Source: Sphingobacteriales bacterium (GTDB lineage: Bacteria > Bacteroidota > Bacteroidia > NS11-12g > UBA9320). From it: a stretch of 64,000 bases of DNA. Of this stretch, positions 1 to 16,848 are shown in pieces (positions within the stretch are counted from its first letter, which is position 1; every line of letters starts with the position of its first letter). The notes beneath the pieces were generated by a model, which did no database searches, was not told the origin of the DNA, and worked only from the letters and a program-made list of their open reading frames with translations. The DNA lies in the NCBI GenBank assembly GCA_043511425.1, contig CP121331.1:1894315-1958314 (forward strand), read 5' to 3'. The translations under genes and the position numbers were made by a program.

Positions 1-2
1 AA

Positions 3-458
3 TCTAATGATCATTTCAAGAGAATTTTAGAAACTAATCAACTACATAGTGTAATTGATGATTTTAATCGTGCTTTTGAAAATTTAGAAACAGATCCTGA
101 ACAAGCAATTGCAAGTGCATCTTCCACTTTAGAAAGTATCTGTAAAGCTATCTGTGACTTTTTTAAAGAAGACTATCCGAAAGCACAGCATATGCAGCCC
201 TTAATTGCCAAGGCATATAAACTACTCAATTTATCACCTGACCATCACGCTGACGAACAAATAAAAAAAATTCTCGGGGGCTTAAATAGTGTTGCAACCG
301 GAATTGGTACCTTAAGGTCAAAAAATAGTTCTGCTCACGGACATGGCACTAAAAAGGTGAAATTAAATGTACGTCATTCACGCTTAGTGGTAAATAGCTG
401 TATGACTATAGGTCTATTTTTGCTTGAGACGTATTATGACAATTATTTAAATAAATAA
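3..458 (+). CDS. Abi_C (abortive-infection C-terminal) domain protein, 5' end outside window
   Basis: Frame 3 is open from base 3 to the stop at 456-458 with no upstream stop. The C-terminal region (ATGIGTLRSKNSSAHGHG) resembles the Abi_C family. AT-rich. Confidence 0.5.
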   Translation, partial: SNDHFKRILETNQLHSVIDDFNRAFENLETDPEQAIASASSTLESICKAICDFFKEDYPKAQHMQPLIAKAYKLLNLSPDHHADEQIKKILGGLNSVATGIGTLRSKNSSAHGHGTKKVKLNVRHSRLVVNSCMTIGLFLLETYYDNYLNK

Positions 459-465
459 AAACGAA

Positions 466-655
466 CGCACAACACTGTATATAGCAAATAGGGCGTTCGG
501 TGGTTTACGAAAGTTCAGTGCCATTTACAAACACCGCCAAATCGTTGATTTGGCTTTTAAATGAAAAAGATAAAAACAAAATACAACGCTTTGGCTCAGT
601 GCAAACCTGAAAGTTTATCGCTTTCTATTGCTCTACTTGCCATGTACTAAACGTT
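466..655. repeat. Inter-cassette conserved element, copy R1 (~190 bp; hairpin GCCAAATC-gtt-GATTTGGC at 536-554 then TTTT)
   Basis: About 90 % identical to 2562-2754. Begins 8 bp after the stop of the Abi_C gene. Confidence 0.7.
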
Positions 656-939
656 AGTTGCAATTTTTAAGAGCTTCTAACAGCTTATTTGCTTGCTCTT
701 TCCTAGCAAAAACTAAGCTATCATTAACTGTGTTTATATCATCATACCACGCTTTTGCGATTTCGTTCTTATACCAAACATAGGTTACTAATGCAGTTCC
801 AGATTTTGTCAATCCTCTGCACTCTTTATCAAGTTCTTGCACTACATAAGTTTCTGTAATTTCTTGGCAACTTTGTAAAAAAAACAGCAACTAACAATAT
901 GTATAGTGCATAGCTTAATTTGATTTTTAATCGTTTCAT
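654..939 (-). pseudogene. Small lipoprotein gene interrupted by a frameshift in an A8/T8 homopolymer (877-884)
   Basis: ATG at 939-937 encodes a signal peptide MKRLKIKLSYALYILLVAVFF in one frame. The 78-aa ORF (LFFLQSCQEITE...), with lipobox LQSC, continues in another frame after the T8 run. Confidence 0.45.
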
Positions 940-1057
940 AATTTCTATCTATTAAAGTTATTTATTAATCGTTATTTCGTGCTGTTTTGGTCGCTACACA
1001 CCATACATTCAACGTTAGGTGCAAGCCCACAAGGATTCTAAGACAGAGCTTATAAAA

Positions 1058-2101
1058 ATGAAGAAATTTAGAAAATATCAAAACTTGATAGTAATTTTCT
1101 TAGCTAGTATTATGGCGGCATGTCAGCCAAGTTCCATTTTGGATTTATCCGAAAAAGACGGTCTATGGTATAAAGATGGAAGCCAATTTACTGGTAAAGC
1201 ATATGGTACATCTAAAGTAATAAACAATAAACCAATTTATCGGTACTTCGGCCTATTTAACTTTGGAGACTCTCTACTTCTGAATATTCAGAATGGAAAG
1301 ATTAAAAGTATAGACTTTTATACTTCAAATGGGCATTTTGCCAAACAAGAATTCTTAGAAGACTCTCTTACTCAACTGGAGTTTTATTATACCGAACCTG
1401 GAATTTGGGACGAGAAACTTATATCAGGGACAGCAAGTTTTAAAAATGGAAAACCACATGGATTAAGAATGTACTATGCTGAATCTAAGCATTACATGTA
1501 CTACAACAACGGTACATTAGGAAGACAAACTGAATATAAGTTGGAACCAAAGCTTCTTGATATTGATGAAATCTTAGCTCAGGAGATTATATACAAGAAA
1601 GGCAATTCTAATGCGAGATTCACTAGGAAATACTATGATAATGGTAAGACATTGAGAGAAGAGTCCGATATAGATTCTGATGGAAATGTTCTAAGTAAAG
1701 TGAGTTATGATTTGAATGGAAAAATATATGAGAAAGTTGTGAATGGTAAAAAGATTCTCTTACCGATAAATGGTAGTATTAAAACCTCGAATAGTCGTGG
1801 TGAAATAAGAGTAATAGAATACAAGAATGGCAAAAAGCATGGTGTGGAACGTCAATATTACACAGACGGACAACTTTGGGTGGAAACCACATATAACAAT
1901 GGAGAAAAAAATGGTTTAAATAAGCGTTGGTACAAAAACGGAGAGTTAGCTTTGGAATGTACATATCACAAAAATATAATTCACGGAAATTATCAAAAAT
2001 GGTACGATAACGGTCAATTATGGGAGAAATCGACATACCAAAATGCAAAATTAATAAGTCAAAAAAAATGGTACAAAGACGGGAAACCGGCTTTAAAATG
2101 A
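1058..2101 (+). CDS. YwqK-family / MORN-variant repeat lipoprotein (antitoxin/immunity-like)
   Basis: Repeated WYxNGxL...Y(H/Q)xN...G units (WYKNGELALECTYHKNIIHGNYQKWYDNGQLWEKSTY). Lipobox IMAAC after MKKFRKYQNLIVIFLAS. Start moved to the internal ATG at 1058; the ORF track starts at 1019. Confidence 0.55.
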   Translation: MKKFRKYQNLIVIFLASIMAACQPSSILDLSEKDGLWYKDGSQFTGKAYGTSKVINNKPIYRYFGLFNFGDSLLLNIQNGKIKSIDFYTSNGHFAKQEFLEDSLTQLEFYYTEPGIWDEKLISGTASFKNGKPHGLRMYYAESKHYMYYNNGTLGRQTEYKLEPKLLDIDEILAQEIIYKKGNSNARFTRKYYDNGKTLREESDIDSDGNVLSKVSYDLNGKIYEKVVNGKKILLPINGSIKTSNSRGEIRVIEYKNGKKHGVERQYYTDGQLWVETTYNNGEKNGLNKRWYKNGELALECTYHKNIIHGNYQKWYDNGQLWEKSTYQNAKLISQKKWYKDGKPALK

Positions 2102-2108
2102 AATTGTT

Positions 2109-2543
2109 ATGGTTAAGCAAATAATGAAATACTCCCGTGCAACTTATCTTATTCTAAGCTACTTTCAACTCATTTTATTCTTTGTTCTATTAAAATCGCT
2201 TTACATGAGAAGACTGTATTTTCCTGGAAATGGGTTTAGTGGAAGCCTATCTAGAACAATGCCTTTAGCTGGTTATCAGTTAGGTTTTATTATATTAATG
2301 ATCATGTTCACATTACTTCTTGTTGTAAGCTGGATGTCAGTAAAAAAGGGCAAGCACAAAATTGTTTTATTTAATATTTTATTCATTATCCAATCCATTT
2401 TAATAGTCCCTATTATCTTCATTATTTACAACTGGCAGCTAGCTATTGTTAAGGTCGGATACTTAATACTAATTCCAATAATGTTACTCTCGATATTGAT
2501 GATATTAGAAAAAATAAAAGTTAAAAGAAGTGTAGCTTCATAA
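2109..2543 (+). CDS. Small polytopic membrane protein, hypothetical
   Basis: 144-aa ORF with about 4 hydrophobic segments. Alternative start at 2124 (MKYSRATYLIL). Followed 19 bp later by repeat R2. Confidence 0.45.
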   Translation: MVKQIMKYSRATYLILSYFQLILFFVLLKSLYMRRLYFPGNGFSGSLSRTMPLAGYQLGFIILMIMFTLLLVVSWMSVKKGKHKIVLFNILFIIQSILIVPIIFIIYNWQLAIVKVGYLILIPIMLLSILMILEKIKVKRSVAS

Positions 2544-2561
2544 AAAAAAATCAAAGCCAGC

Positions 2562-2754
2562 ACCTAACAATTGTATATAGCAAATAGGGCGTTCAGTGGT
2601 GTACGAAAGTTCAGTGCTATTTACCAACACCGCCAAATCGTTGATTTGGCTTTTAAGAATGAATAAATTAAAAACAAAACACAACGCTTTGGCTCTGTGC
2701 AAAATTGAAAGTTTATCGCTTTCTTCTGCCCTACTTGCCATATACTAAACGTTG
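2562..2754. repeat. Inter-cassette conserved element, copy R2 (hairpin 2632-2651 then TTTT)
   Basis: Near-identical to R1 (tgtatatagcaaatagggcgttc...ccgccaaatcgttgatttggctttt...cgctttggctc...gaaagtttatcgctttc...tactaaacgtt). Confidence 0.7.
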
Positions 2755-2806
2755 TGCGTAATGCAAAAAAATAGTAACCATACAGATTAACAGACAAATA
2801 AAAAAC

Positions 2807-3475
2807 ATGAAACAGAAATTAGTATTTATTCTTGCTTTGACATTAATAGCAAAGCTTTCACACAGTCAGCTTATTGACCGATATGGAATTAATGTTGGAA
2901 CTTCATATTCTACTCAGATTTGGGATTACAAATTAATAAACGTTGATTCAGATAATGAATATAAATTTGGATTTCAAGCCTTTTTACAAGCGGAAAAAGA
3001 TTTTGGGAAACTCTTGGCTCTGCGGACAGAATTAGGATACATACAAAAAGGATTTAAAAATAATTTAACCCTTACTTCCGCAGAGGGAACTTTTGTTGGG
3101 ACAAATAATGACAATGTGATATTGCATGATTTAGCACTTAATCTTGGATTAAAAATAAAACCGTTGAAAACAGATTTTTCTCCCTATTTTCTAGCTGGAT
3201 TACGTGGCGATTATATGATTTCCTATAAAGACGTAGAAATAGAAGAGCCTGGTTCTGGACTGAAATTTAATATTTATGAATCAACAATTGAGGATTTTAA
3301 CAAATTCAATATTGGTGGATTAATAGGATTGGGTGTTGACATAAAGGATTTGTTTTATTTTGAAATTGAATACAACCCAAACTTCACAAAGAATTTTGAT
3401 GACACAGGATTGAGTATTAAAGATAATTGTTGGGGAGCAAAAATTGGATTAAACATTAACAAACTAACAGAATAA
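2807..3475 (+). CDS. Secreted beta-rich protein, possible outer-membrane beta-barrel
   Basis: Signal peptide followed by alternating hydrophobic beta-strand pattern. No terminal aromatic residue, so the OMP assignment is weak. Confidence 0.35.
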   Translation: MKQKLVFILALTLIAKLSHSQLIDRYGINVGTSYSTQIWDYKLINVDSDNEYKFGFQAFLQAEKDFGKLLALRTELGYIQKGFKNNLTLTSAEGTFVGTNNDNVILHDLALNLGLKIKPLKTDFSPYFLAGLRGDYMISYKDVEIEEPGSGLKFNIYESTIEDFNKFNIGGLIGLGVDIKDLFYFEIEYNPNFTKNFDDTGLSIKDNCWGAKIGLNINKLTE

Positions 3476-3484
3476 GAGGCACAT

Positions 3485-3678
3485 ACGCACAACAATGTAT
3501 AAAAGTAATAGCGGTTTTCGTGGGTATTTGAGCGTATTTGAGCGTAAGTAGTTCTAGTCAGCCCCGCCAAATCTGCCGATTTGACTATTTAGATTAGGTG
3601 CAGCTTTGGCTACTTAGTAAATTGACACGAAACCGCTTTAAAGTCCGCTACTACTCTTATACGGGTCGTTATGCGCAA
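3485..3678. repeat. Inter-cassette conserved element, diverged copy R3 (hairpin CAAATC-tgcc-GATTTG 3568-3583; internal 10-bp tandem tatttgagcg x2)
   Basis: Shares the acgcacaacaatgtata 5' end, ccgccaaatc...gatttg hairpin, gctttggct and cgttatgcg 3' motifs with R1/R2. Confidence 0.5.
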
Positions 3679-3711
3679 TTGCTCAGCAAACTCAAAAAGC
3701 TGTAAAAACAA

Positions 3712-4278
3712 ATGAAAATAAAGAAAGATAATTTAACACCTGAACAAAAAAAGAAAGCCTATTTTGGAATTGTTTTTTTGTCAATTTTATTATTCTCATT
3801 TTTTTATTATGCTAACTTTTTAAAAAAGACAACTAAGGAATTATTGTCAAAAAACACTGAATTAACAGTTTGCGAAATTATAGGTTTTAGCACTTATAAA
3901 GGTAGTACAGATATTATAGAATATTCTGTAAACGGAAAAAAATATAAAAGAGAACTTTTAGCAAGAAGGGTAGCTGAAATAGGAGAATTTTATGAATTAA
4001 AATATTCTAAAGTTGAACCTGATATTTGTGAAGTTAATTATAAAAATCCGAAAATTTATAACCCTGAAAATTACATAAAAAGTATAGGAATTATAAGTGA
4101 CATTTATGAGAACGAAAAATATAAGATGTTAACTTTTGAGTATGATTATGAAAGAGAAAAATTTGAAAGAGATATTTATCTTTATAACCTAGAGAATTAT
4201 GAAAAAGGAAAGCAAATTGAAATAATAATAAACAGAAAGAATCCAAAGATATCATATTTAACAAAACAGATTGAATAA
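3712..4278 (+). CDS. Membrane-anchored hypothetical protein (K/E/Y-rich, AT-rich)
   Basis: 188-aa ORF with an N-terminal TM segment (FGIVFLSILLFSFFYY). Followed by element R4. Confidence 0.45.
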   Translation: MKIKKDNLTPEQKKKAYFGIVFLSILLFSFFYYANFLKKTTKELLSKNTELTVCEIIGFSTYKGSTDIIEYSVNGKKYKRELLARRVAEIGEFYELKYSKVEPDICEVNYKNPKIYNPENYIKSIGIISDIYENEKYKMLTFEYDYEREKFERDIYLYNLENYEKGKQIEIIINRKNPKISYLTKQIE

Positions 4279-4287
4279 AAAACTGCA

Positions 4288-4425
4288 CATAACACCGTGT
4301 ATATTTTATTGCTTTCTTTTAGCCAACTTACGAAAATCCTCGCGGATTTTCTATTCAGTATTTATTTGCTAAATTTACGCTAAACCAACGCAACAAAGCA
4401 TACACAAACACGTTGGCTGTAATTT
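4288..4425. repeat. Inter-cassette element, degenerate copy R4 (hairpin GAAAATCC-tcgc-GGATTTTC 4333-4352)
   Basis: Shares cacataacaccgtgtatat 5' end and acgttgg 3' motif. The hairpin occupies the same position as in R1-R3 but has a different stem sequence with pairing maintained. Confidence 0.4.
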
Positions 4426-4486
4426 AAAAGAACACTGCTCAGCCTAAAATTTCTTGAACAAGCTGACGATAATTATTTTGAATACC

Positions 4487-4870
4487 TTACGTAACTTTTG
4501 ATTTGTCTTGATTAAATCCTGCCTCAGCTATTGAAAACATTTCCGCGTTTTGAACTCTCAAGTTTTTATCACTCCACAAAATGATTTCTGTAATGACAGG
4601 AGCTAACTCTATTCCCTTTTCTGTTAGTAGATAAATATTTTCCTTTTGATTATCAGGCAATTTTTGCTTGCTTATCAAATCATTTTCTTCCAACCACTTT
4701 AATCTTGAAGATAAGATACCTGGTGCAATTCCCTCTGGTGAGGCAGAAAATTCCTTAAAATTTTTTTTGCCTTGAAGCAACATATCCCTTACAATCAACA
4801 AAGACCATTTATCTCCTACTATATCTAAAGTGGAAGCAAGTGGACAGCCTGATCTAAATTTATTTTCCAT
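4487..4870 (-). CDS. HxlR-family winged-helix transcriptional regulator
   Basis: CPLASTLDIVGDKWSLLIVRDML motif. Divergent from the SDR gene. Confidence 0.7.
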   Translation of the reverse strand: MENKFRSGCPLASTLDIVGDKWSLLIVRDMLLQGKKNFKEFSASPEGIAPGILSSRLKWLEENDLISKQKLPDNQKENIYLLTEKGIELAPVITEIILWSDKNLRVQNAEMFSIAEAGFNQDKSKVT

Positions 4871-4914
4871 TTTTTTTACTATTATTTCGATAGTAATAAT
4901 TATTTATCTTACTT

Positions 4915-4935
4915 TTGCTACTGATTTAATAGCAA
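4915..4935. promoter_or_regulatory. Palindrome TTGCTA-n9-TAGCAA in the HxlR/SDR divergent intergenic region, candidate operator
   Basis: Seen directly in the sequence. HxlR-type regulators commonly bind palindromes in their divergent promoters. Confidence 0.25.
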
Positions 4936-4950
4936 AAATAGAGAATATAA

Positions 4951-5721
4951 ATGAAACAATCAAAACAAATAGTACTTATAACGGGTGGAGGTTCAGGCAT
5001 TGGACTTGCCATAGCTCAAAAATTCTTAGCAAATAACAATACCGTAATCATAACAGGTAGAAATCTTGCTAAACTCGAAAAAGTAAAACAAGAAAATCCC
5101 AAAATACATATCTATCAAAGTGATGTAACGGATGATGCCGAAGTAAGGATGCTCGCAGACGATATTCAACAAAAATTTGACGGATTGGATGACCTCATTA
5201 ACAACGCAGGGATTATGAATTTGGTAGATACGGGCAATGAAAGCAACGACTTGCAAAAACAAATGCAGGAAATTGAAATCAACTATAATTCGCCTATTCG
5301 AGTATTGCATTATTTCCTTCCACTACTCAAAAAAAGTAAAAATGCAGTTCTTGTCAATGTTTCTTCGGGTTTGGCGTATGTTCCATTTGCACAAGCACCC
5401 GTTTATTCAGGAACAAAATCAGCTTTACATTTTTGGACATTAGGCATTCGTCCACAACTACAACCGCATAATATAAAAGTGGTTGAACTCTTGCCACCTG
5501 TTGTCGATACACCATTGGCACACGGAGCTGATATTGCCGAAGATGATAACTTGAAACCAATGCCACCCGAAAAATTAGCAGATATTTTTTGGAAAGATTT
5601 TATAAGTGGGAAAGAAGAGATTACACCGGGTATTTCCAAACAATTGAAATTAATGAGTAGGCTTGCTCCCAAATTCATCTTTAAGCAATTGAACAAAAAA
5701 CCAATCCCAAACCGAAAATAA
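4951..5721 (+). CDS. SDR-family NAD(P)-dependent oxidoreductase
   Basis: ITGGGSGIGLAIA Rossmann motif and YSGTK catalytic motif. Confidence 0.75.
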   Translation: MKQSKQIVLITGGGSGIGLAIAQKFLANNNTVIITGRNLAKLEKVKQENPKIHIYQSDVTDDAEVRMLADDIQQKFDGLDDLINNAGIMNLVDTGNESNDLQKQMQEIEINYNSPIRVLHYFLPLLKKSKNAVLVNVSSGLAYVPFAQAPVYSGTKSALHFWTLGIRPQLQPHNIKVVELLPPVVDTPLAHGADIAEDDNLKPMPPEKLADIFWKDFISGKEEITPGISKQLKLMSRLAPKFIFKQLNKKPIPNRK

Positions 5722-5742
5722 TCACAGATAAAAAATAACAAA

Positions 5743-6231
5743 ATGGACAATTTTACAATTATCAACTTACAAGCCTTGACAGGCACAATCGCAATCATTT
5801 TAGGTTTCAAGTATTGGATTCAACCTCGCATTTCAAAACTATCCTTAAACGAAGCACTTTTGCCTTTTGTTTTCTTAAACACCTTTAGGTATTTGGGCTT
5901 GACTTTTATGGCTAAGGAGCAGTTTTATGACAGTTTTCCTTCGGACTTTTTAACAACAGTTGGTCTGCTTGACTTTACTACAGCAATTTTAGCCATCATT
6001 GCCGCCATTGCATTAAAAAACAAATGGAGTTTTGCCATTCCGTTAGTATGGATATTCAATATTGTTGGGTTTGGGGATTTAATTACTGCTTTTCCTCAAT
6101 TTTTTAGCTTAGAACTCTATAATCATAACCTAGGAATTATTTGGTTGACGTTTGTAACCTATGGTTTAGCTGCGTTCTTAAGTCATATCTACATATTTAT
6201 CAGACTATTCAACAATTTAAAAAAGAAATAA
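5743..6231 (+). CDS. Integral membrane protein, hypothetical
   Basis: 162-aa ORF with about 4 TM segments. Confidence 0.5.
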   Translation: MDNFTIINLQALTGTIAIILGFKYWIQPRISKLSLNEALLPFVFLNTFRYLGLTFMAKEQFYDSFPSDFLTTVGLLDFTTAILAIIAAIALKNKWSFAIPLVWIFNIVGFGDLITAFPQFFSLELYNHNLGIIWLTFVTYGLAAFLSHIYIFIRLFNNLKKK

Positions 6232-6232
6232 T

Positions 6233-7237
6233 ATGAACACAAATAATAAAATACTTCTATTCCTTGCACTGAGTTTTTTCGCTTTTCAAAATATAAAAGC
6301 ACAAAGTGTTTATGAAGGAAAGAAAACAAAGGTAGAAAAGGATATTTCGGCAGAATTTCCATTCGAATCTAAATTCATAGAATTAGGAACAGACACAGTA
6401 CATTATGTAGAGTCTGGCGAAGGTGACCCAATAATATTATTGCACGGTTTACCTGCAAATGCTTATCTATGGCGAAACATTATTCCAAACATTGACGATA
6501 ATAAAAAGGTAATAGCCTTGGACTTTTTAGGTTTTGGAAAATCAAGTTTTCCAAAAGACAGAAACGTTTCAGTAGAAGTACAGTACAAAATGCTGACTGA
6601 TTTTATAGAAGCTAAGCAACTTAAAAATGTCACACTTTTTATTCAAGATATTGGCTCAATTGTAGGGATGCTCTATGCGATTAGAGAACCTCAGAACGTA
6701 AAGGGGATGGCTCTCTTTGAAGCTCCTTTTATGCCAGCTGATGTAATGTACGACCAATTACCGTTTAGTTTCAAAGCGTTTATGAAACTCACTAGAACCA
6801 AAAAAGGGAATGAAAAATGGATGGTTAAAAAGAATTTTGCTGGCAAAAAATTGGCGGTTAATTTCTTTACAGGTAGAAAATTACCAAAAGAAGCGTATCC
6901 GCATTATACGCAACCTTGGGATGAGAAAGAAAGACGCTATGCCATAACCAATGGTCCAGACCCTGCCGTTTTATCCTACACCAAAGGAAAGGGAGAAAGT
7001 GACTTTGCTACTCTATTGGACACTATATCAAATGGAATGAAAGAAACACGAATCCCAATCTTATATTTCTACGCCAAAAAAGGATTGGTAAATAGAAAAA
7101 AAGCAGTTGAATACGCCAAAGAAAACTTCAAAAATGCAACTTATGTTTATCTCGGAAAAGGAAAACACTTTTTAACGGAAAGCCACCCAAAACAAATGAG
7201 CCAAAAGTTTAATTTATGGTTTGAAACGTTGAAGTAG
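6233..7237 (+). CDS. Alpha/beta hydrolase, haloalkane-dehalogenase-like, with signal peptide
   Basis: HGLPANAYLWRNIIP resembles the HLD signature HGNPTSSYLWRNIIP. Nucleophile context IQDIGS. Confidence 0.6.
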   Translation: MNTNNKILLFLALSFFAFQNIKAQSVYEGKKTKVEKDISAEFPFESKFIELGTDTVHYVESGEGDPIILLHGLPANAYLWRNIIPNIDDNKKVIALDFLGFGKSSFPKDRNVSVEVQYKMLTDFIEAKQLKNVTLFIQDIGSIVGMLYAIREPQNVKGMALFEAPFMPADVMYDQLPFSFKAFMKLTRTKKGNEKWMVKKNFAGKKLAVNFFTGRKLPKEAYPHYTQPWDEKERRYAITNGPDPAVLSYTKGKGESDFATLLDTISNGMKETRIPILYFYAKKGLVNRKKAVEYAKENFKNATYVYLGKGKHFLTESHPKQMSQKFNLWFETLK

Positions 7238-7254
7238 AAGAAGAAAAACTACAG

Positions 7255-7510
7255 CCAATCGAGTAGACCGCCCCGCTAATTAAGGCAGGGAGGGCCTTCT
7301 CACACCACCGTAGCCTTCGACAAGCTCAGGACAGGCCAAGCTGGTCTCGTATACGGCGGTTCATTAATCCTACTTCACTTGGAGGAAGTATTCTAGCATA
7401 CTAATATACCCTCTCTTTTTAAGTCTGTCTTTGGTTATGGTGGTGATTAAGATAGGACTTTGGGCGGTAGCCCAGCTGATGATACCCTGGCTGTTAAGAC
7501 AGGTGTAATT
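7255..7510. other. GC-rich noncoding island (possible structured RNA or relic of a mobile-element end)
   Basis: Stops in all six frames. Local GC is far above the flanks. Long-range complementarity between ACCGCCC (7270-7276) and GGGCGGT (7462-7468). Confidence 0.3.
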
Positions 7511-7622
7511 CAAATATAGGTTAACAATGTTTGTTCATGCTTTATGCTATTATGTATACTACAAGCCTTATCCCACGCTTCTATTCTTCTTGTATCTTTA
7601 CATTTATTTTTATATTTTTGGC

Positions 7623-7646
7623 ATTGGATATAGTAATATCCAATGA
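7623..7646. promoter_or_regulatory. Perfect 10-bp inverted repeat CATTGGATAT-agta-ATATCCAATG upstream of the 7743 gene
   Basis: Seen directly in the sequence, about 100 bp upstream of the start. Confidence 0.25.
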
Positions 7647-7742
7647 CACCACGTATTCAGAAAAAAATATACATCACGGGATAAAAAATTGACCTGACCA
7701 ATCCCTAAAATAAGGTAAGGCATAAATTAAAATGTAACAAAA

Positions 7743-8186
7743 ATGAAAAAAATGATTCTTATGAGTGTAATAGCTCTATTTGTTGGACTAAGTGTAAAAG
7801 CACAGCAAACTAATATTTCTGTCGCTATTGCAAAAAAATCTACAGATTGCAATTCTACAGATTTAGGGTATAAAGTATTTTATGGTGCAGATTATGGCGA
7901 GTTAAGAAAAAAATCAAGTGCTGCAGTTAAAAGACTATGTCCAGATTGGGAGCACGTCGAAACAAAAAATAATGAAGACTGGGGGAGCTATATGGGAAGT
8001 TATTTAGTAATTATTTCAACCACAGTAACGAACTCTAGCGGATGCAAAAGGAGTAATTATGGAGTAGGTTTTGGGACAAGCAGTAGTGCAGCCTTAAAAA
8101 ATGCCAAAAAACACTTAACAGGTAGAAATTGGAGTTGGAGCGAAAGCAAACACGGTTATAGAATCGAAGCTGAAAAAAGGTATTAA
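7743..8186 (+). CDS. Small secreted protein, hypothetical
   Basis: Signal peptide MKKMILMSVIALFVGLSVKAQQ. 147 aa. Confidence 0.5.
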   Translation: MKKMILMSVIALFVGLSVKAQQTNISVAIAKKSTDCNSTDLGYKVFYGADYGELRKKSSAAVKRLCPDWEHVETKNNEDWGSYMGSYLVIISTTVTNSSGCKRSNYGVGFGTSSSAALKNAKKHLTGRNWSWSESKHGYRIEAEKRY

Positions 8187-8189
8187 AAC

Positions 8190-8290
8190 ACCGTAATACG
8201 GTGCACAGTTAATCGCGAAACTTCTTACTATGTTGAGAAGCTCCACACGTAATTCCGCCACTAACCATATACAAACACGTTGGGAGTCAT
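8190..8290. repeat. Partial R4-like element after the 7743 gene (hairpin cttct-n10-agaag; caaacacgttggg 3' motif)
   Basis: The 3' motif matches R4 (cacaaacacgttggctg). Located immediately after the stop codon. Confidence 0.3.
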
Positions 8291-8311
8291 TAAAAAACAT
8301 TAGTACCTAAG

Positions 8312-8693
8312 TGAAGATATCAATTAACAAAAATGCCCCAGAAGTTCAATCCAAAGAGACTGAAATCCTTGTGAAACCCGAAAAACTTTGGAAAGTCTTG
8401 TCAGATATAGATAAGTGGTCTAATTAGCATTCGAACATCAAAAACCCACAAACACTCTCAAAGCCTTCTGAAGGAAGTACATTTAAATGGAAAAATAACA
8501 GAAGTAACATCACTTCCACCATTCATACCATAGAACAAAATAGGATGCTAGGCTGGACTGGGAAAAATTTTGCAGCGGATGCAAATCATAATGGGTTTCT
8601 GACACCAACAGAGAATGGTACTAAAGTCAGAACTGAAGAAAGTGTGCAAGGTTTGCTCATGTCCATTACGAAGAAGAAAATAAAAACGATATA
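8312..8693 (+). pseudogene. SRPBCC (polyketide-cyclase/START-like) family gene with an in-frame TAG and a 3' frameshift
   Basis: VKISINKNAPEVQSKETEILVKPEKLWKVLSDIDKWSN*HSNIKNPQTL...EGSTFKWKN. The stop sits where a Trp would be expected. Confidence 0.5.
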
Positions 8694-8815
8694 AACCAAT
8701 AGAAAATCTAATACACGCAGAAATTCTTACCAAAACGTTTGATGATCTACCTCACGGAGTAGGTATTTTTCAAGTTGCGGACTTAAGTGACATTAGAAGC
8801 ATTCAATATGTCTTT

Positions 8816-9765
8816 ATGAATAAGGTTCTTTTATATGAAATGAGAAAAACCCGCGAGGAGGTTTTTGGGAAAAAGATTATAGAAGTAGCACCAGAAGCCT
8901 ATGCTCACGAAGGAGGCTTACAGGTTATTGAAGCTTATAGAAAAGTAGCTACAGACGGTGAAAGTATTAACTTGGGGCTAGTGGAATATTCAAATCACAT
9001 GGTCGCAGGTACATACGAATGCTCCATTCATCCGATCCAAGATAATTACGTATACGTGATGCTCAGGAATGTAACGGAATTAGAACAAACAAAAAATGAA
9101 TTGGAGTTAAGGAATAAGGAACTCAACTAATTTGCCCATATGGTAACCGCTTCGCACTGTTTCTGGTTTTATACAATTAATTGAGACGAAATATCAACAC
9201 AAATTAGATGAGCAAGCGCTCAGATTATTAGGTTTCATATCTAACGCAACAAGTCGGATGAGAACCCTAATAAGCGACCTATTAGATTATGCCAGTATAG
9301 GTTAAGGAAAAGAAATGACTGTAGTAGACTGCAAAAAACTGGTTGAGGTCATACAGGAAGACTTGCAAGCTATAATCAACGATACAGGTGCGACTATTGA
9401 AGTTAGTGAGTTACCCCGGATCAAAGGCTTTCAAACCGAACTACGCCTACTTTTTCAGAATTTAATTAGTAACAGTATTAAATTTAGCAAACCTGGGATA
9501 GCTCCGAAAATCGTACTATCTGCAAAAGAATAGGATGGTTGGACTTTTGCCGTACAGGACAACGGTATCGGCATAGCGGACGAACACATAGATAAAATTT
9601 TTGGTACTTTCCAACGCTTGCACTCTAGAGACCAATATGAAGGGTCAGGCCTTGGACTCGCTCATTGTACGAAAATAGCTGAACTACATAAAGGTAAATT
9701 ATGGATAAAATCTAAAGTTGGAGAAGGGAGCACCTTCTATTTTAGCATGCCAAATCAACTCTAGC
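8816..9765 (+). pseudogene. Sensor histidine kinase (PAS-HisKA-HATPase_c) disrupted by frameshifts and nonsense codons
   Basis: PAS fragment in ORF 8816-9130. HisKA region (FISNATSRMRTLISDLLDYASIG*) lies in another frame. HATPase_c region (LISNSIKFSKPG...[22 protein letters not shown]...GSGLGLAHC) has an in-frame TAG at 9531-9533. Confidence 0.6.
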
Positions 9766-9952
9766 CATTACACACTATAGCCTTCCCTAAAAATCAGACA
9801 GTTTAAAATTTGAACAAGAATTATAAACCAATAGCTACTTATCTTTTGTACCTAAAAACTACACCATACTTCAGCCTTTTAAAGACCTACACCCCCTTTC
9901 GCAAATGCTTCCCGCCTGAAAACTGAGTATAAATTACCAGCGCACTTCACCT

Positions 9953-10082
9953 TTTTAGTCTATACCGTAATCACTGGTTTGAATTATTCCTGTCCTACTA
10001 ATTGGGGTATCATCACACCTAAATTCTTCGATAAGCTGAACCGAGAAGACTTTTGGCAAGGCTCCCAATAGGATGAAGCACG
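9953..10082 (+). pseudogene. Degenerate partial duplicate of the 5' UTR and first ~40 codons of the radical SAM gene at 11312
   Basis: tttagtctataccgtaatca...cacacctaaattcttcgataagctgaaccgagaagacttttggcaaggctcc aligns to 11287-11420 with an internal deletion. Confidence 0.55.
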
Positions 10083-10740: not shown

Positions 10741-11311
10741 ATCTTAAAATTTTATACGAAAATAGTATAAAAAAAATATAACATACAAATTATTAGTCCG
10801 CTTGTATTCCATTAACCAATGGGACAGTTCTATAATCGCACCACTTGCGTCTTTGAGCTATGGAGTACGTATTTACCTTTTAGTATCCGCAAAAGTGCCA
10901 ATGAACCGGTTTGCTGAACTCTAAAAGAAAAAAAAGAAATAGGTCCACAATTGCTCATCTTTGATTCATTTGCAGCCCAAAGCATTGCTGTCGAGACCAT
11001 TATGGACCATATACCTGCCTTGAACCTATACGAAAAAGTCGGATGTATTGGAAATAGCCACCTGGGAAACCGAGCACAATCTGACCAAGGTTCTGTTAAA
11101 ACGACCATTAAACACATTACCGAATGAGCGAAGAACCAATCCACCGAAGAGTCTAAGAGGCTTTCGTTTTACGAGTTACAGACTTCTATCGTTACCAAAG
11201 TGTCTCCCACGAATTCACGTCCAAGTTTCCGCAGCCTAGCTTAAACACAACTGGGATAGTTGAGAAAAACTTGCACGTTCCACATATTTAGTCTATACTG
11301 TAATCAACGAT

Positions 11312-12394
11312 TTGGATAATACTATTATCATACCGAAAAATGTAAAAGGGCGAGGTGCCTTGGTAAACACACCTAATTCCTTCGATAAGCTGAACAGAGA
11401 GGACTTTTGGGACGGCTCTTATTTTGATGAAGAATTCTTTACCAATACCAACCAAACTTCATACACTACGATATATCCTAAGACCTTAGTCAATAAGGTA
11501 GATAGTCCAGACATCCCATCAGACTGGAGTATGAATCCTTATCAAGGGTGTGAGCATGGATGCGTCTACTGCTACGCTCGTATCACACACGAGTACTGGG
11601 GATATAGTGCAGGCACAGACTTTGAAAAAAATATACTCATCAAAGAAAATGCACCTGAGCTACTTATCAAAAAACTAAAAAGCCGCTCATGGACTGGTCA
11701 GCCTATTATGCTCAGTGGCAATACAGATTGCTACCAACCCGCTGAGCAAAAATTTGAAATTACACGCAAACTACTTCAGGTATGCCTAGATCACAATCAG
11801 CCTGTAGGTATTATCACTAAAAACGCCTTGGTATGTAGAGATATAGATATCTTGAAAAAGCTAGCCGCTAAGAACCTAGTGCAAGTACACATCTCTATCA
11901 CCACACTGGACGAAGAGCTTCGCAGAACTATGGAGCCACGCACCTCCAGCACTCATAAAAGACTAAAGACTATTGAGAAACTGAGTGCTCATAATATCCC
12001 CGTGCACGTAATGCTAGCACCTATCATTCCCGGACTTAACAGTGACGAAATCTTTGATATCTGCGAAGCCGTGAGTAAAGCTGGGGCTAAATCACTAGGC
12101 CATACCATGGTACGGCTAAATGGAGCTATCGCACTACTCTTCGAAGATTGGATACAAAAAACCTTCCCCCTAAAAGCTACACGGGTGATGAATCTAATCT
12201 CAACGACCCAAGGTGGCAAGCTTGGAAATAGCACTTTTGGTGAACGCCTGAGAGGGGTAGGCACCATGGCAGTATCCATTAATGAGCAGGTAAGATTAGC
12301 CAAGAAAAAAAACGGATTAGCCCTAAAACCAAAACCGCTAAACACCGCTGTATACCAATCTGCTCCCTCTACTCAACTCAACCTGTTTGTTTAA
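11312..12394 (+). CDS. Radical SAM protein, SPL/PA0069-like family
   Basis: CEHGCVYCYAR CxxxCxxC cluster motif. About 360 aa. Confidence 0.7.
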   Translation: MDNTIIIPKNVKGRGALVNTPNSFDKLNREDFWDGSYFDEEFFTNTNQTSYTTIYPKTLVNKVDSPDIPSDWSMNPYQGCEHGCVYCYARITHEYWGYSAGTDFEKNILIKENAPELLIKKLKSRSWTGQPIMLSGNTDCYQPAEQKFEITRKLLQVCLDHNQPVGIITKNALVCRDIDILKKLAAKNLVQVHISITTLDEELRRTMEPRTSSTHKRLKTIEKLSAHNIPVHVMLAPIIPGLNSDEIFDICEAVSKAGAKSLGHTMVRLNGAIALLFEDWIQKTFPLKATRVMNLISTTQGGKLGNSTFGERLRGVGTMAVSINEQVRLAKKKNGLALKPKPLNTAVYQSAPSTQLNLFV

Positions 12395-12422: not shown

Positions 12423-12791
12423 ATGGAGCCAAAGGAATGCTTGCATTGTGGAAAGGAGTTAATAGGCCGAGCAGACAAGAAATTTTGCGATAACCAATGC
12501 CGCAATGAGTATAACAATACACATAACAGCATTTCCAATAATTACATACGCTTAGTAAACCGAATCATTAAAAAAAATAGAAATATCCTAGAAGCACTGT
12601 GCCCACAAGATAAATCTATAAAAGTTCCTAAAAAAGAATTGACCAAACTCGGCTTCAGCTTTGAATACTTCACGAATACCTATACGACCAAAGCAGAAAA
12701 AACCTACTATTTCTGCTACGAATATGGCTATCTGAACTTGGGAAATGATTACTTTGCTTTAGTTTACAATCAAAAGGCCTTAAACGAATGA
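12423..12791 (+). CDS. Zinc-ribbon-containing hypothetical protein
   Basis: CLHCG...CDNQCRN four-Cys N-terminus. Confidence 0.45.
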   Translation: MEPKECLHCGKELIGRADKKFCDNQCRNEYNNTHNSISNNYIRLVNRIIKKNRNILEALCPQDKSIKVPKKELTKLGFSFEYFTNTYTTKAEKTYYFCYEYGYLNLGNDYFALVYNQKALNE

Positions 12792-13627
12792 AGCTAAAAG
12801 ACGTACTCGGAGCAGAACTCTGGAAAATTAGCGATAACGCCGCAGTGACTGTGGGCAGTCTGCTGTACATTATAGGTGCTGCAGTCGTAATCTGGTTTAC
12901 CTACCGATGGACCAAAAAACTTGCTCGCAAAGCTGTACAAGCAGGTCGACTGGATACTGGACGGGAGTTTGCCATTATTCGGATATCGAAGTACTTATAC
13001 ATCATCCTTTTTGCGATAATCGCCCTACTCGCTTTGAATGTAAACTGGACCGGTTTCTTAGCACTTACCCCCCTGCTTATTGGTATTGGTCTTGGTCTCC
13101 AACAAGTAGCCAATGACATCGTATCTGGAGTTATTCTCCTAGTAGAACCCTCCATACGTGTAAATGATGTGGTAGAAGTAGATACCATCGTAGCTCGTGT
13201 GACGGAAATAGGACTGCGGACCTCTATAGTAGAAACAAGAGACGGTATCGCCATGATTATACCCAACCACAAGCTGGTGAGTGAAAACCTAATCAACTGG
13301 AGTTCCAATGATACCGCTACGCGTTTTAGTATAAAAGTAGGAGTAGCCTATGGCAGTGATGTGAAACTAGTAGAAAAACTATTATCCGAAACCGCTTGGA
13401 AACACAGCAAGGTAATTACAAACCCTGCTCCACTTATTCTGTTTAAAGATTTTGGCGAATCCAGTCTAGATTTTGAATTGATATTTTGGACCAATCAACT
13501 TTTTGTTATCGAACAAGTCAAAAGTGAATTGAGGTTTATGATAGATGACGTCTTCCGTGAGCACAACATTCAGATTCCATTCCCTCAGCGAGATTTACAT
13601 ATAAAATCAGGATATAAGAATCCATAA
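12788..13627 (+). CDS. Mechanosensitive ion channel, MscS family
   Basis: TM segments followed by a beta-domain (IIPNHKLVSENLINWS ... LDFELIFW). ATGA overlap with the upstream gene. Confidence 0.7.
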   Translation: MKLKDVLGAELWKISDNAAVTVGSLLYIIGAAVVIWFTYRWTKKLARKAVQAGRLDTGREFAIIRISKYLYIILFAIIALLALNVNWTGFLALTPLLIGIGLGLQQVANDIVSGVILLVEPSIRVNDVVEVDTIVARVTEIGLRTSIVETRDGIAMIIPNHKLVSENLINWSSNDTATRFSIKVGVAYGSDVKLVEKLLSETAWKHSKVITNPAPLILFKDFGESSLDFELIFWTNQLFVIEQVKSELRFMIDDVFREHNIQIPFPQRDLHIKSGYKNP

Positions 13628-13642: not shown

Positions 13643-14752
13643 GTGAAGAAGCGATCTTGTACCCATACACTAGCAATCGTCCTAGTCACGTGGATGCTCG
13701 GTGCATGTAAAGATCAGCATACTTTACCCGTTTCTGAGGAGAAACCGACGTCCAACACTTTCTACTTTCCTCCCATCTCAGGCGAGTGGGAAACCACAGA
13801 CCCTTCCACATTAGGATGGAACCAAAAGAATATTGACCTGCTCTATACGAACTTACAAAACAATGATACGCGGGCTTTCATCGTACTCAAGGACGGGAAA
13901 ATTGTACTGGAAAAATACTGGGGCAAGACCCTCTTAGGCAACGCAGATTTTGATACTAGTAAAGCGTGGTACTGGGCATCAGCCGCTAAAACCCTCACCG
14001 CATTTACAGTAGGTAAGGCGGAAGAAGATGGGCACCTCAAACTAACCGACAAGACTTCTGACTACTTGGGTGAAAACTGGACCAGCCTAACCCAGGAACA
14101 GCAAGATAAAATCACTGTTTGGCACCAATTGACGATGACGTCTGGACTAGATGACGTAAGAGCGGATGACACCTCCGCTGCCAGCCTAGTGTACAAAGCC
14201 GATGCCGGCACCCGCTGGGCCTACCACAACGCTCCATATACCCTGCTGGAAAAAGTAGTAGAAAATGCCACTAATCAGGACTACAATACTTACTTCAATA
14301 GCGTACTACAAGATAAGATAGGTATGACCGGATACTGGCAGTGGAGTGGAGTACTTCACCTCTATCTTAGTACTGCTAGATCTGCCGCTCGATTTGGTCT
14401 CTTGATGCAGAACCAAGGAAACTGGGACGGTGAGCAATTGCTGAACCAAGAGTTTGTAAATGCAGCTATTACCAAGTCTCAAGAAATCAATAAAGCGTAC
14501 GGATACCTCTGGTGGCTGAATGGAAGCGAATCTTACCATATACCGCAGTCTCAGATAGAGTTTCCTGGGATGTTCCTTCCAGACGCTCCGGCAGATGTAT
14601 ATTCCGCTATGGGTAAAAATGGCCAGTATGTAAGCATCTCCCCGTCCACTGGACTAGTAATCATTCGGATGGGCGATAGTCCAGATAATGCATTAGTTCC
14701 CTTCCTATATCTCAATGATATCTGGGAAATGATGGATGCCGTGATGAATTAG
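13643..14752 (+). CDS. Serine hydrolase / beta-lactamase-family lipoprotein
   Basis: SAAK (SxxK) motif and YHN motif. Lipobox LGAC. GTG start. Confidence 0.55.
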   Translation: MKKRSCTHTLAIVLVTWMLGACKDQHTLPVSEEKPTSNTFYFPPISGEWETTDPSTLGWNQKNIDLLYTNLQNNDTRAFIVLKDGKIVLEKYWGKTLLGNADFDTSKAWYWASAAKTLTAFTVGKAEEDGHLKLTDKTSDYLGENWTSLTQEQQDKITVWHQLTMTSGLDDVRADDTSAASLVYKADAGTRWAYHNAPYTLLEKVVENATNQDYNTYFNSVLQDKIGMTGYWQWSGVLHLYLSTARSAARFGLLMQNQGNWDGEQLLNQEFVNAAITKSQEINKAYGYLWWLNGSESYHIPQSQIEFPGMFLPDAPADVYSAMGKNGQYVSISPSTGLVIIRMGDSPDNALVPFLYLNDIWEMMDAVMN

Positions 14753-16755: not shown

Positions 16756-16786
16756 GAACTGTCTTTAGACCGCAATACAACGTATT

Positions 16787-16824
16787 AAAAAGCCCGATAA
16801 TCTTTCGATTATCGGGCTTTTTAT
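16787..16824. terminator. Bidirectional rho-independent terminator (AGCCCGATAAT-n-ATTATCGGGCT flanked by A- and T-runs)
   Basis: Sits between the convergent genes ending at 16755 and 16849. Confidence 0.6.
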
Positions 16825-16848
16825 AGTTATACCAATGAAGCTATATAG

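Follow-up and report, generated by a model that had tools for sequence, protein, structure and literature searches.

The question raised by the first 8 kb of this stretch of a Bacteroidota chromosome (the window, 64 kb in full) is why one unit of genes after another ends in a copy of the same kind of repeat. We conclude that positions 1-8285 most probably belong to a cassette array of the integron type in the chromosome, of which they form the end far from the integrase. The units hold zero to four genes followed by an imperfect palindrome of 95-196 nt, and their G+C content is 31-35%, compared to ~40% in the core genome (Table 1). Each unit would be a mobile cassette and its palindrome would work as an attC site, a recombination activity that we predict from the sequence. 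An integron-like array or novel cassette system had been proposed in the preliminary description, and the boundary rule, the recombinase and the strain variation set out below support that proposal.

The four elements described earlier (R1-R4) are real and lie near the places given for them. A repeat search agrees with the ~90% identity assigned to R1 and R2 (89% over 96 nt, 95% over 85 nt) and with the greater divergence of R3 (74-77% over the first 39 nt), and the genes ahead of them belong to the classes described (Abi_C, 144-aa membrane protein, outer-membrane beta-barrel, weak DUF3592 match). The elements were said to start 5-20 bp after the stop codon; the measured distances span a narrower 9-19 nt (ORF ends at 458, 2543, 3475 and 4278). 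A next gene 30-55 bp past each element is found behind R2 (2807) and R3 (3712), but behind R1 comes the 361-bp cassette 1, whose only possible gene is a 78-aa ORF on the minus strand, and behind R4 the minus-strand HxlR gene. The count of four was too low, as site X, the shortened site Z and a mutated R'' remnant had been missed. Clean R'' and R' cores had been reported as absent, yet every site opens with nnnnAAC(A) and closes with (C)GTTnnnn.

Table 1. Features at positions 1-9774 of the window. Cassette boundaries are set from the G/TT positions in the flanking sites (the slash marks the crossover); CM R2, covariance model.
Feature	Positions	Strand	Content
Cassette 0, 3' part	1-653	+	AbiJ-like Abi_C gene (ORF ends at 458) and attC-like site; start upstream of window
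attC-like site R1, 193 nt	467-659	+	R'' GCACAAC, R' GTTAGTT; putative crossover G653/T654; CM R2 match 526-659, E 0.09
Cassette 1, 361 bp	654-1014	+	No confident gene; possible 78-aa ORF on minus strand, 654-890
attC-like site X, 132 nt	889-1020	+	R'' AACTAAC, R' GTTAGGT; CM R2 E 2.5e-11
Cassette 2	1015-2751	+	MORN-repeat lipoprotein 1058-2101 (Pfam MORN_2 1.2e-14); 144-aa membrane protein 2109-2543
attC-like site R2, 196 nt	2562-2757	+	R'' ACCTAAC, R' GTTGTGC; CM R2 match 2622-2757, E 9e-4
Cassette 3	2752-3668	+	222-aa outer-membrane beta-barrel protein 2807-3475 (Pfam OMP_b-brl_2 5e-12)
attC-like site R3, 188 nt	3487-3674	+	R'' GCACAAC, R' GTTATGC; CM R2 E 1e-3
Cassette 4	3669-4412	+	188-aa membrane protein 3712-4278; weak DUF3592 match
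attC-like site R4, 132 nt	4287-4418	+	R'' ACATAAC, R' GTTGGCT; CM R2 E 2.6e-14
Cassette 5, 2.8 kb, four genes	4413-7259	+	Closed by mutated R'' AGCCAAT at 7253-7259
HxlR regulator (cassette 5, Pfam)	4487-4870	-	
SDR (cassette 5, Pfam)	4951-5721		
162-aa membrane protein (cassette 5)	5743-6231		
Alpha/beta hydrolase (cassette 5, Pfam)	6233-7237		
Non-coding stretch, 480 nt	7260-7742	.	Unexplained; stands where the rest of the cassette 5 attC would be
147-aa secreted protein	7743-8186	+	Last gene with an attC behind it
Shortened terminal attC-like site Z	8191-8285	+	R' GTTGGGA at 8279-8285; degenerate 5' arm; CM R2 E 5.6e-6
Decayed distal segment	8286-9774	+	Fragments with broken reading frames, similar to an SRPBCC/cyclase-type gene and to a PAS-histidine-kinase gene; no attC

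Each site opens with an R'' core (nnnnAAC-A), which a 2-4-nt spacer separates from a long L stem; a variable middle follows, and L', a 5-6-nt spacer and the R' core (C-GTTnnnn) make up the fifth part. Site lengths are uniform within a family, with modes at ~132 and ~190 nt. The R' of one site is the reverse complement of the R'' of the next (7/7, 7/7, 7/7 and 6/7 along the window, the first being R1 R' with its flank against site X), while R' matches the R'' of its own site at 3-6 of 7 positions only. For cassette 5, CTACAGCCAA is, compared by eye, the reverse complement of the R4 R' flank. Complementarity to the next site rather than to its own is what the cutting of cassettes at G/TT leaves behind. 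The rule extends to 80 loci of other species, where 54 of 88 consecutive site pairs agree at at least 6 of 7 variable bases (39 perfectly), against 1.4% of cross-locus pairs; between R' and R'' of one and the same site, agreement is no better than chance.

In R2, R3, R4 and X the bottom strand folds over its full length, and at each of the six sites its fold is more stable than that of the top strand. A structural scan that ignores sequence places five plus-strand sites within 467-4418, where shuffles would lead us to expect ~0.1. In the set of 81 sites analysed for covariation, paired cells make up 94.6% (70.5% in shuffles) and the covariation score is 0.592, compared to 0.148 in shuffles, none of 500 of which reach the real value, and 0.05-0.12 with slid partners. 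Changes on both sides were found in 17 of 23 pairs tested and in 15 of 20 in a separate RNAalifold consensus. The sites have no bulged (extrahelical) bases and carry conserved bottom-strand G·T pairs instead, three of them invariant or nearly so (scored as G·U: 81/81, 76/81 and 56/81). The scanner favours bottom-strand wobbles in the first 11 L pairs, so the strand asymmetry is partly built in, but the two strongest G·T columns fall outside those pairs.

Hairpins directly behind stop codons would also suit terminator or small-RNA elements at gene 3' ends, or a REP/MITE-type repeat, without any cassette mobility, and the single match of the structural scan in the remaining 60 kb, an unrelated terminator-like hairpin at 16775-16832, shows that such a structure can pass the scan. 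However, a covariance model built from the loci of other species only (CM R2, with no window sequence included) recovers the six sites in the 64 kb at E 2.6e-14 to 0.09, all of them on the same strand, and nothing else below E 0.26; the copies are thus not scattered in the manner of a MITE or REP element. In a sense transcript, the conserved G·T pairs of the bottom strand turn into A·C mismatches, which disfavours the terminator or small-RNA reading raised in the preliminary description, and no T-run follows the hairpins of the window sites. The boundary rule, the fixed orientation relative to the linked integrase and the cassette turnover described below point the same way, and we regard simple repeats as a scarcely credible explanation.

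The content of the putative cassettes is varied. The protein of cassette 0 matches Abi_C (Pfam, 2.4e-23) and, in its full-length form P0121, AbiJ (PADLOC, 1.4e-20). A 99.6% identical metagenome contig (L094) shows that this cassette also holds a 103-aa gene, upstream, with one further attC ahead of it. Pfam searches gave no family for the ORF of cassette 1 or the 144-aa membrane protein, and family searches gave none for the 147-aa secreted protein. The far end of the array (7259-9774) has been rearranged and is explained only in part. The non-coding stretch 7260-7742 has no Rfam match and shows weak similarity over 92 nt to another contig (L085); an inverted repeat links 7477-7514 with 9978-10015. 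Site Z shares the D5 repeat with the 3' end of R4. The gene resemblances in 8286-9774 come from reading the sequence and its ORFs, not from a family search. The strain-conserved flank begins at ~9775-9785, from where homology to three other loci of the species (L004, L005 and L007) starts.

Between the recombinase and this flank, gene content differs completely among strains of the same species, and one strain (L011) differs from L006, L008 and L009 in the absence of a single cassette, so the unit-level variation that the preliminary description had looked to strains for is seen. Homologous recombination between paralogous cassettes, or their collapse in the assembly, could account for the L011 loss. 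Cassette 3 occurs in identical form on three contigs (L001-L003). Cassette 5 is common to different genera: it is 91-95% identical in nucleotides to positions 3441-7168 of L043, where it stands behind a different cassette in an array whose integrase is only 64% identical to that of the window's species (L004). The homology ends at window position 7258; in L043 the AGCCAAC is intact and its attC comes next.

The integrase of the window strain presumably heads the array from outside the window, judging from strains ~95% identical in the flank. In L004, L005 and L007 a 372-aa tyrosine recombinase (PF13495 and PF00589) stands between a TPR gene and the variable cassettes, co-oriented with them; in most loci a small zinc-ribbon gene accompanies it in divergent orientation. 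The enzyme is related to Xer and IntI. Its C-terminal tail, ...KSPL(D/E), is IntI-like, but it lacks the IntI-specific insertion (I2 helix region), which is held to be necessary for attC recombination (PMC4889954, PMC7790495, PMC9668308). Instead, its N terminus carries a conserved alpha/beta domain of ~100 aa. The enzyme stays below the integron-integrase cutoffs (TIGR02249, 187.8 against 265; PRK15417, 123 against 435), XerA 4a8e (1.6e-37) and 5hxy match it best in sequence and fold, and the alignment to XerA and XerD is gap-free. The integrase sought by the preliminary description is thus present at the array head in L004 and L005, with an attI-like site, but it is not a canonical IntI.

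Within the window alone, an attC cluster with no integrase resembles the IntegronFinder category CALIN, a label it would probably receive if the classical attC model detected the sites, as the neighbouring recombinase would fail intI_Cterm. On this reading the array would be an ordinary integron remnant whose classical attC sites depend on a canonical IntI acting in trans from elsewhere in the genome, the adjacent recombinase being unrelated (for example Xer or an island integrase); the YAAC...GTTR core and G/TT boundary agree with classical attC sites, and the neighbouring enzyme does lack the IntI-specific region. We consider this very unlikely. The recombinase family is spread across Bacteroidota and heads such arrays in ~80 species; 60-110 bp past its stop codon lies an attI-like GTT site that is conserved. 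This site (...TATAC-NN-ATG/TT) is conserved up to ATG/TT and divergent beyond, the bases after GTT are complementary to the R'' of the first attC, and seven MAG contigs break off 0-2 nt past the GTT. Structure-defined sites number 139 on the plus strand in 291 kb downstream of the recombinase, compared to 30 plus-strand and 41 minus-strand sites in 668 kb upstream, an enrichment of ~10-fold found only downstream and only on the recombinase's strand. Moreover, the sites lack the bulged bases that the IntI insertion recognises, and surveys with IntegronFinder list hardly any integrons for Bacteroidetes (PMC9024848).

The same cassette system might instead run on Xer-like recombination of double-stranded DNA with two strand exchanges, the palindromes serving another purpose or none. 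The boundary rule alone fits single-strand and double-strand exchange alike, and an enzyme that is gap-free against XerA and XerD and has no I2 helix, the element that Escudero et al. linked to single-strand recombination (PMC7790495), would be in keeping with the latter. Yet the R' region as duplex has no dyad symmetry, R''/R' and L''/L' meet only in the folded strand, and stems that covary across very different sequences, with three positions G·T on one strand only, are hard to explain if the DNA never folds. Double-strand exchange therefore seems to us unlikely. We favour a model in which the bottom strand folds to a hairpin whose R''/R' and L''/L' duplexes, set apart by an asymmetric unpaired spacer, would mimic the core site of a recombinase. 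The tyrosine recombinase would cut and exchange strands at G/TT, and one and the same reaction would insert cassettes at the attI adjoining the integrase gene and excise them by recombining two attC sites. The neighbouring integrase would be the catalyst and folded single-stranded DNA the substrate; the G·T pairs and the N-terminal domain may stand in for the extrahelical-base/I2 recognition of classical integrons.

The closest known counterpart is the sedentary chromosomal integron (Vibrio superintegron, ~125-nt VCR attC). Both have arrays of mostly promoterless, co-oriented small genes, each with an imperfect palindrome with AAC...GTT cores, a G/TT crossover that makes each R' a hybrid matching the next cassette, uniform site length per family, strain-specific content, an attI adjoining a tyrosine recombinase gene, and phage-defence-like genes (here AbiJ-like). 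The present system differs in its recombinase, which is co-oriented with the cassettes and has the extra domain in place of the insertion, in its G·T pairs in place of extrahelical bases, in the zinc-ribbon gene and in a host phylum where integrons are reported to be nearly absent. The 'inverted' integrases of Treponema and related organisms by published definition keep the IntI-specific region (PMC4889954), unlike this family. Xer recombinases (XerA, XerC/D at dif) share the CB and CAT architecture and a catalytic domain without insertion, but act on one conserved duplex dif site in chromosome dimer resolution, whereas this family, with its IntI-like tail and extra domain, adjoins variable cassettes in arrays of diverse hairpin sites. 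We found no description of such an integron class in the literature that could be searched. In sister strains the array starts with an attI and a recombinase dedicated to it, so that the array of this species is a non-canonical complete element, unlike a CALIN, and not a degraded integron. In related strains and ~80 other species, such arrays are tied to a recombinase that does without the insertion thought to define integron integrases.

The four elements that the preliminary description had reported at the start of the window, each directly behind a small gene, are all present at the places it gave (R1 to R4 in the table). R1 and R2, put there at about 90 % identity, align in a repeat search with 89% identity across 96 nt and 95% identity across 85 nt; R3 is, as stated, more diverged, with 74-77% identity to R1/R2 over its first 39 nt. 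A family search also agrees on the classes of the preceding genes: Abi_C, a membrane protein of 144 aa, an OMP beta-barrel and another membrane protein with weak similarity to DUF3592. The position just after stop codons stands (the elements start 9-19 nt past the stop), but the count of four does not, as there is a fifth element, X. The supposed lack of clean R'' and R' cores, the outer 5' and 3' ends of a site, has to be withdrawn: every element opens with nnnnAAC and closes with GTTnnnn.

The window was searched with a structural scanner (AAC...GTT and an 11-bp stem of the inner arms L'' and L' with the observed spacers, no other sequence being demanded) and with CM R2, a covariance model built from 79 sites of ~132 nt from other loci, the window sequence being excluded. 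The scanner found five full sites in the 64 kb, all on the plus strand, and a single match in the other 60 kb, at 16775-16832, where an unrelated hairpin resembles a terminator; in shuffled windows there are ~3 matches per 64 kb on both strands, and ~0.1 are expected per 4.4 kb of one strand. The six CM R2 matches share one orientation and the next best anywhere in the window has an E of only 0.26, so copies of the site are confined to the array. An earlier arms-only covariance model of 52 positions (model R1) missed the long sites, its local ends being unable to span 80-140 nt. Scattered copies, which the preliminary description took as the mark of a MITE or REP repeat, are absent from the 64-kb window outside 467-8285 by both scanner and CM R2. 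REP/MITE-like dispersal is likewise not seen in the 668 kb upstream of integrases in other-species loci, where site density is that of the background. Rfam returned nothing at the gathering threshold for the whole window.

Positions of the attC-like sites in the window, with their matches to the covariance model CM R2
Feature	Position	Strand	Remarks
Site R1	467-659	+	AAC...GTT cores; CM R2 match 526-659, E 0.09
Site X	889-1020	+	fifth element; CM R2 E 2.5e-11
Site R2	2562-2757	+	CM R2 match 2622-2757, E 9e-4
Site R3	3487-3674	+	CM R2 match 3501-3658, E 1e-3
Site R4	4287-4418	+	CM R2 match 4287-4418, E 2.6e-14
Mutated site start (R'')	7253-7259	+	end of cassette 5
Site Z	8191-8285	+	shortened, ends at 8285; CM R2 E 5.6e-6

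A classical attC site has inverse cores at its ends (R'' RYYYAAC and R' GTTRRRY), a second inverted-repeat pair, L''/L', that is conserved as structure, an unpaired central spacer, a variable terminal structure and two or three extrahelical bottom-strand bases on which the choice of strand depends. The sites described here share these features, extrahelical bases excepted. Among 133 sites (AAC and GTT themselves were demanded by the scan), a Y directly precedes AAC in 116 and an R directly follows GTT in 116; A follows AAC directly in 122, C precedes GTT directly in 110, and the outer core positions are less strict than RYYY/RRRY. The L''/L' structure, the spacer and the variable end are all found: 13 sites from four arrays of the window's species are laid out as R'' (7 nt), a 3-4-nt spacer, L''...L', a 5-6-nt spacer and R' (7 nt), and across sites the spacer measures 2-4 nt in one arm and 5-6 nt in the opposite arm. 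Lengths range from 52 to 255 nt with modes at 132 and 190, clustering at 129-135 nt and 183-199 nt, and some sites have 54-73 nt; the ~190-nt class has an additional hairpin, GCCAAATC-n3-5-GATTTGGC.

R2, R3, R4 and X have bottom strands that fold over their full length, and in all six window sites the bottom strand is the stabler (R2, -30.3 versus -26.6 kcal/mol for the top strand; R3, -26.1 versus -20.9 kcal/mol). In 81 distinct sites of ~132 nt, standard pairs fill 94.6% of cells (shuffles, 70.5%). The covariation score reaches 0.592, compared to 0.148 for shuffles, with 0 of 500 as high, and 0.05-0.12 for slid partners; all four Watson-Crick pair types occur at many L-stem columns. No indels are needed to align the L stems over 11-18 bp, and the stems hold no bulged bases; their conserved irregularities are G·T pairs, not bulges. 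In 11 of the 13 sites of the window's species, L pair seven is A·C when read on the top strand and G·T when read on the bottom strand, and bottom-strand G·U is conserved at columns 8-142 (81/81), 29-126 (76/81) and 22-132 (56/81); since columns 8-142 and 29-126 lie outside the stretch scored by the scanner, their conservation is no artefact of selection. The variable middle of the sites is enriched eightfold in the pentamer AGTGC, which in the 132-nt class falls mostly around positions 30-35 and 85-90 (in the window, for example, at 510-520, 595-605 and 2606-2616). The pentamer is a candidate arm-type binding site for the N-terminal domain of the integrase, an idea that remains a lead because only 50 of 125 sites carry the motif.

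Integron crossover occurs between the G and the TT of the 3' core, so the bases past GTT are part of the following cassette and pair with its 5' core. The window follows this rule: the 3' core is the reverse complement of the next 5' core at 7/7 positions for R1 to X, X to R2 and R2 to R3 and at 6/7 for R3 to R4, while each 3' core matches its own 5' core at just 3-6 of 7. By eye, the complementarity at the boundaries extends over 9-10 nt. The GTTGGCTGTA of R4 pairs with CTACAGCCAA at 7249-7258, which defines a four-gene cassette of 2.8 kb. In other loci the rule is obeyed at six or more of the seven variable bases by 54 of 88 consecutive downstream pairs (39 perfectly) and by 1.4% of cross-locus control pairs; complementarity between the two cores of one site is at chance level.

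Integrase, insertion site and cassettes lie side by side in L004 and L005, sister-strain loci of the window's species; in the window's own strain the integrase gene would lie outside the window. Past the integrase stop codon the two are conserved through ...CTATACTAATG/TT and diverge beyond it, and the 5' core of the first L004 attC, TGCTAAC, is complementary to the diverged GTTAGCA. Most of the 71 other-species loci listed have a motif of TATAC, 2-3 nt and ATG/TT 60-110 nt past the integrase. Seven contigs of metagenome-assembled genomes (MAGs) end 0-2 nt beyond the attI-like GTT, the outcome expected from co-assembled strains with differing first cassettes.

The cassettes have a G+C of 31-35%, compared to ~40% in the rest of the window, and their content differs between strains at the level of units, as the preliminary description's reading of a cassette array implied. 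An identical copy of the window's mechanosensitive-channel protein (12788-13627) is encoded on many contigs, with flanks that match the window at 93-96% identity. In L004 (GCA_965656655.1), L005 and L007, a 372-aa tyrosine recombinase (PF13495 and PF00589) follows a TPR gene on the cassette strand and is succeeded by one cassette or four different cassettes, respectively, before homology to the window returns at 9775-9785. L006, L008 and L009 hold a third, unrelated set (T9SS-tail proteins and an OMP), and the window cassettes were not found in any of these sister-strain arrays (L004-L009). In the window's own strain (L094) the array extends beyond the upstream edge of the window by at least one further attC, and the Abi_C cassette carries two genes.

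One cassette is shared across genera. Window 4355-7258 is 90-95% identical to 3441-7168 of L043, a Flavobacteriaceae MAG whose integrase is just 64% identical to that of L004; the L043 copy stands behind a different first cassette, carries an 834-bp insertion and has an attC that opens with an intact AGCCAAC. Near-identical attC types also recur in differing orders elsewhere (L005 6397-6528, L045 17707-17838, L090 14125-14255). In L011, cassettes c2 and c4 of L006 are directly joined and exactly the unit L006 2235-3876 is missing. This loss may be due to homologous recombination or to collapse during assembly, c2 and c3 being paralogues. From the strain-specific arrays, the cassette shared with L043, the one-cassette difference between L011 and L006 and the contig breaks at GTT, we infer that cassettes are probably inserted and excised in an integrase-dependent manner.

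Within L006, two adjacent cassettes (636-2105 and 2286-3746) code for T9SS-tail proteins of 489 and 486 aa that are paralogues, and their attC sites are nearly identical; they are a tandem duplication within the array. In L010 the integrase, array and flank are lost in a clean deletion, with its junction at L010 8364-8370, that also truncates the zinc-ribbon gene. We considered L010 as an empty integration site and rejected this, as it is a deletion that runs between L004 positions 4509 and 8365 and falls on a 7-bp microhomology (GGCTTTC); it is uninformative on integration of the platform.

The distal end of the window array (7259-9774) is rearranged and is understood in part. Homology to L043 ends after AGCCAA (7258). 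An unrelated non-coding stretch of 480 nt (7260-7742) begins exactly past the truncated R'' of cassette 5 (AGCCAA/T), where L043 has an intact attC; its G+C is above that of the cassettes, and 92 nt of it are 77% similar to L085 19593-19680 (Algoriphagus). Nothing supports a group II intron or another known RNA here, and Rfam at the E-value threshold gave no more than a chance-level match (E 0.85) for 7200-8350. On either side of the last cassette, site Z and a pseudogene segment lie the arms of a 38-nt inverted repeat (7477-7514 and 9978-10015, 76% complementary), and the motif GATGATACCC is also the junction between attC and conserved flank in L004; together they suggest an inversion or other rearrangement at the distal end. 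Frame-broken remnants (8330-9765), which on reading the sequence resemble an SRPBCC/cyclase-like and a PAS-histidine-kinase gene, separate the last attC from the conserved flank and have no counterpart in the loci of other strains. Just past the array is a frame-broken pseudo-copy of the radical SAM gene (11312-12394), whose upstream region and first ~120 nt are duplicated (9948-10078 versus 11281-11432, 80-83% identity); it is also found in L004, L005 and L007. The flanks of all strains keep a D12-class adenine methyltransferase gene (14749-15747, minus strand) with no obvious restriction partner adjoining.

The integron reading had anticipated an intI-like recombinase; a tyrosine recombinase does head the sister-strain arrays, but it scores below the integron-integrase cutoffs and lacks I2, the additional helix region specific to IntI. 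The fold is clear (PF00589, 4e-36; PF13495, 4e-11), and in two family alignments R230 is nearly invariant and K252, H319, R322, H345 and Y354 are invariant. Neither the IntI cutoffs (TIGR02249, 187.8 in two stretches, cutoff 265; PRK15417, 123, cutoff 435) nor the Xer cutoffs (XerA, 199.3, cutoff 220; XerD, 177, cutoff 329.6) are reached. Alignment to the solved structures of XerA (4a8e, 1.6e-37; 5hxy) and XerD is unbroken. With VchIntIA (2a3v) it falls into two pieces (query 114-277 with 19-182, and query 294-370 with 242-318), leaving 16 residues in the query where IntIA has 59; the missing stretch we take to be the I2 helix with the residues that bind the extrahelical bases. By hand count on this alignment, the position of IntIA W157 is a conserved K in the family. 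The AlphaFold model (pLDDT 80.6), predicted for P0001, which is 98% identical to the L004 integrase, has an alpha/beta domain at the N terminus (residues 15-80), a core-binding domain of four helices and a catalytic domain, and shows no extra helix; Foldseek ranks XerA first and then IntIA. The family and IntIA have in common a C-terminal ...SPL(D/E/S) tail, which is typical of classical IntIs and is not known from Xer proteins, and this shared tail hints at a kinship with IntI. In L004 (4269-4625, minus strand) and in 54 of 77 other-species loci, the integrase has upstream of it a divergent gene for a zinc-ribbon protein of ~118 aa (CxxC...FCSxxCKNxYH); the same pattern did not detect it in loci of Algoriphagus and Cyclobacterium. 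In the window, the radical SAM gene is followed by a paralogue (12423-12791, plus strand; 28% identity, E 4e-16).

The integrase has thousands of full-length relatives, and the best 120 listed (59-98% identical) are named just 'tyrosine-type recombinase' or 'XerD'. A scan of one genome per species gave 263 relatives; the 80 loci retained from these come from Flavobacteriaceae (Aequorivita, Gelidibacter, Planktosalinus, Psychroflexus), Weeksellaceae, Cytophagales (Algoriphagus, Cyclobacterium) and Chitinophagaceae. Downstream of the integrase (291 kb) the scanner matched 139 times on the integrase strand and 30 times on the opposite strand; upstream (668 kb) the numbers are 30 and 41. The MAG Bacteroidia bacterium M30B35 (JAGYJG010000001.1, 2.4 Mb) has two integrase copies ~1 Mb apart with identical downstream attI regions (L014 and L015), so more than one platform is possible per genome.

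On these sequence comparisons, we infer that the system probably works like an integron. Its recombinase lacks the additional domain that defines IntI (Ghaly et al. 2022, PMC9668308) and is therefore not placed in the IntI family. Cury et al. 2016 (PMC4889954) noted a few recombinases without the IntI-specific region near attC sites and judged them not to be IntI. For Bacteroidetes, Néron et al. 2022 (PMC9024848) list just In0 elements and a single integron that is complete, that of Salinibacter ruber M1, and a preprint by Darracq et al. 2024 (10.1101/2024.07.02.601686) counts Bacteroidota among the clades earlier found without integrons. No account of the present class was found in the literature searched, and absence there is no proof of absence. 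We regard the chances as evenly balanced that Bacteroidota (Flavobacteriales, Cytophagales, Chitinophagales) hold a widespread, unrecognised integron class whose integrase never had or has lost I2, and in which strand choice and site recognition would operate through the conserved G·T pairs, the asymmetric spacer, the N-terminal domain and possibly the zinc-ribbon partner; such a class would be a second solution to recombination of hairpin sites or a surviving stage from before I2.

The short sites, the single recombinase and the clear strand asymmetry make the question open to a direct recombination assay. If the reading is true, a second route or an earlier stage would have to be added to the account that ascribes single-strand recombination to the gain of I2 (Escudero et al. 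2020, PMC7790495). In integron surveys the extra domain is what defines the integrase, and Bacteroidetes have been reported as almost integron-free (PMC9024848); if the family is active, marine and soil Bacteroidota would hold a large reservoir of exchangeable genes, with phage-defence-like, envelope and detoxification-type functions among them, that is invisible to standard detection.
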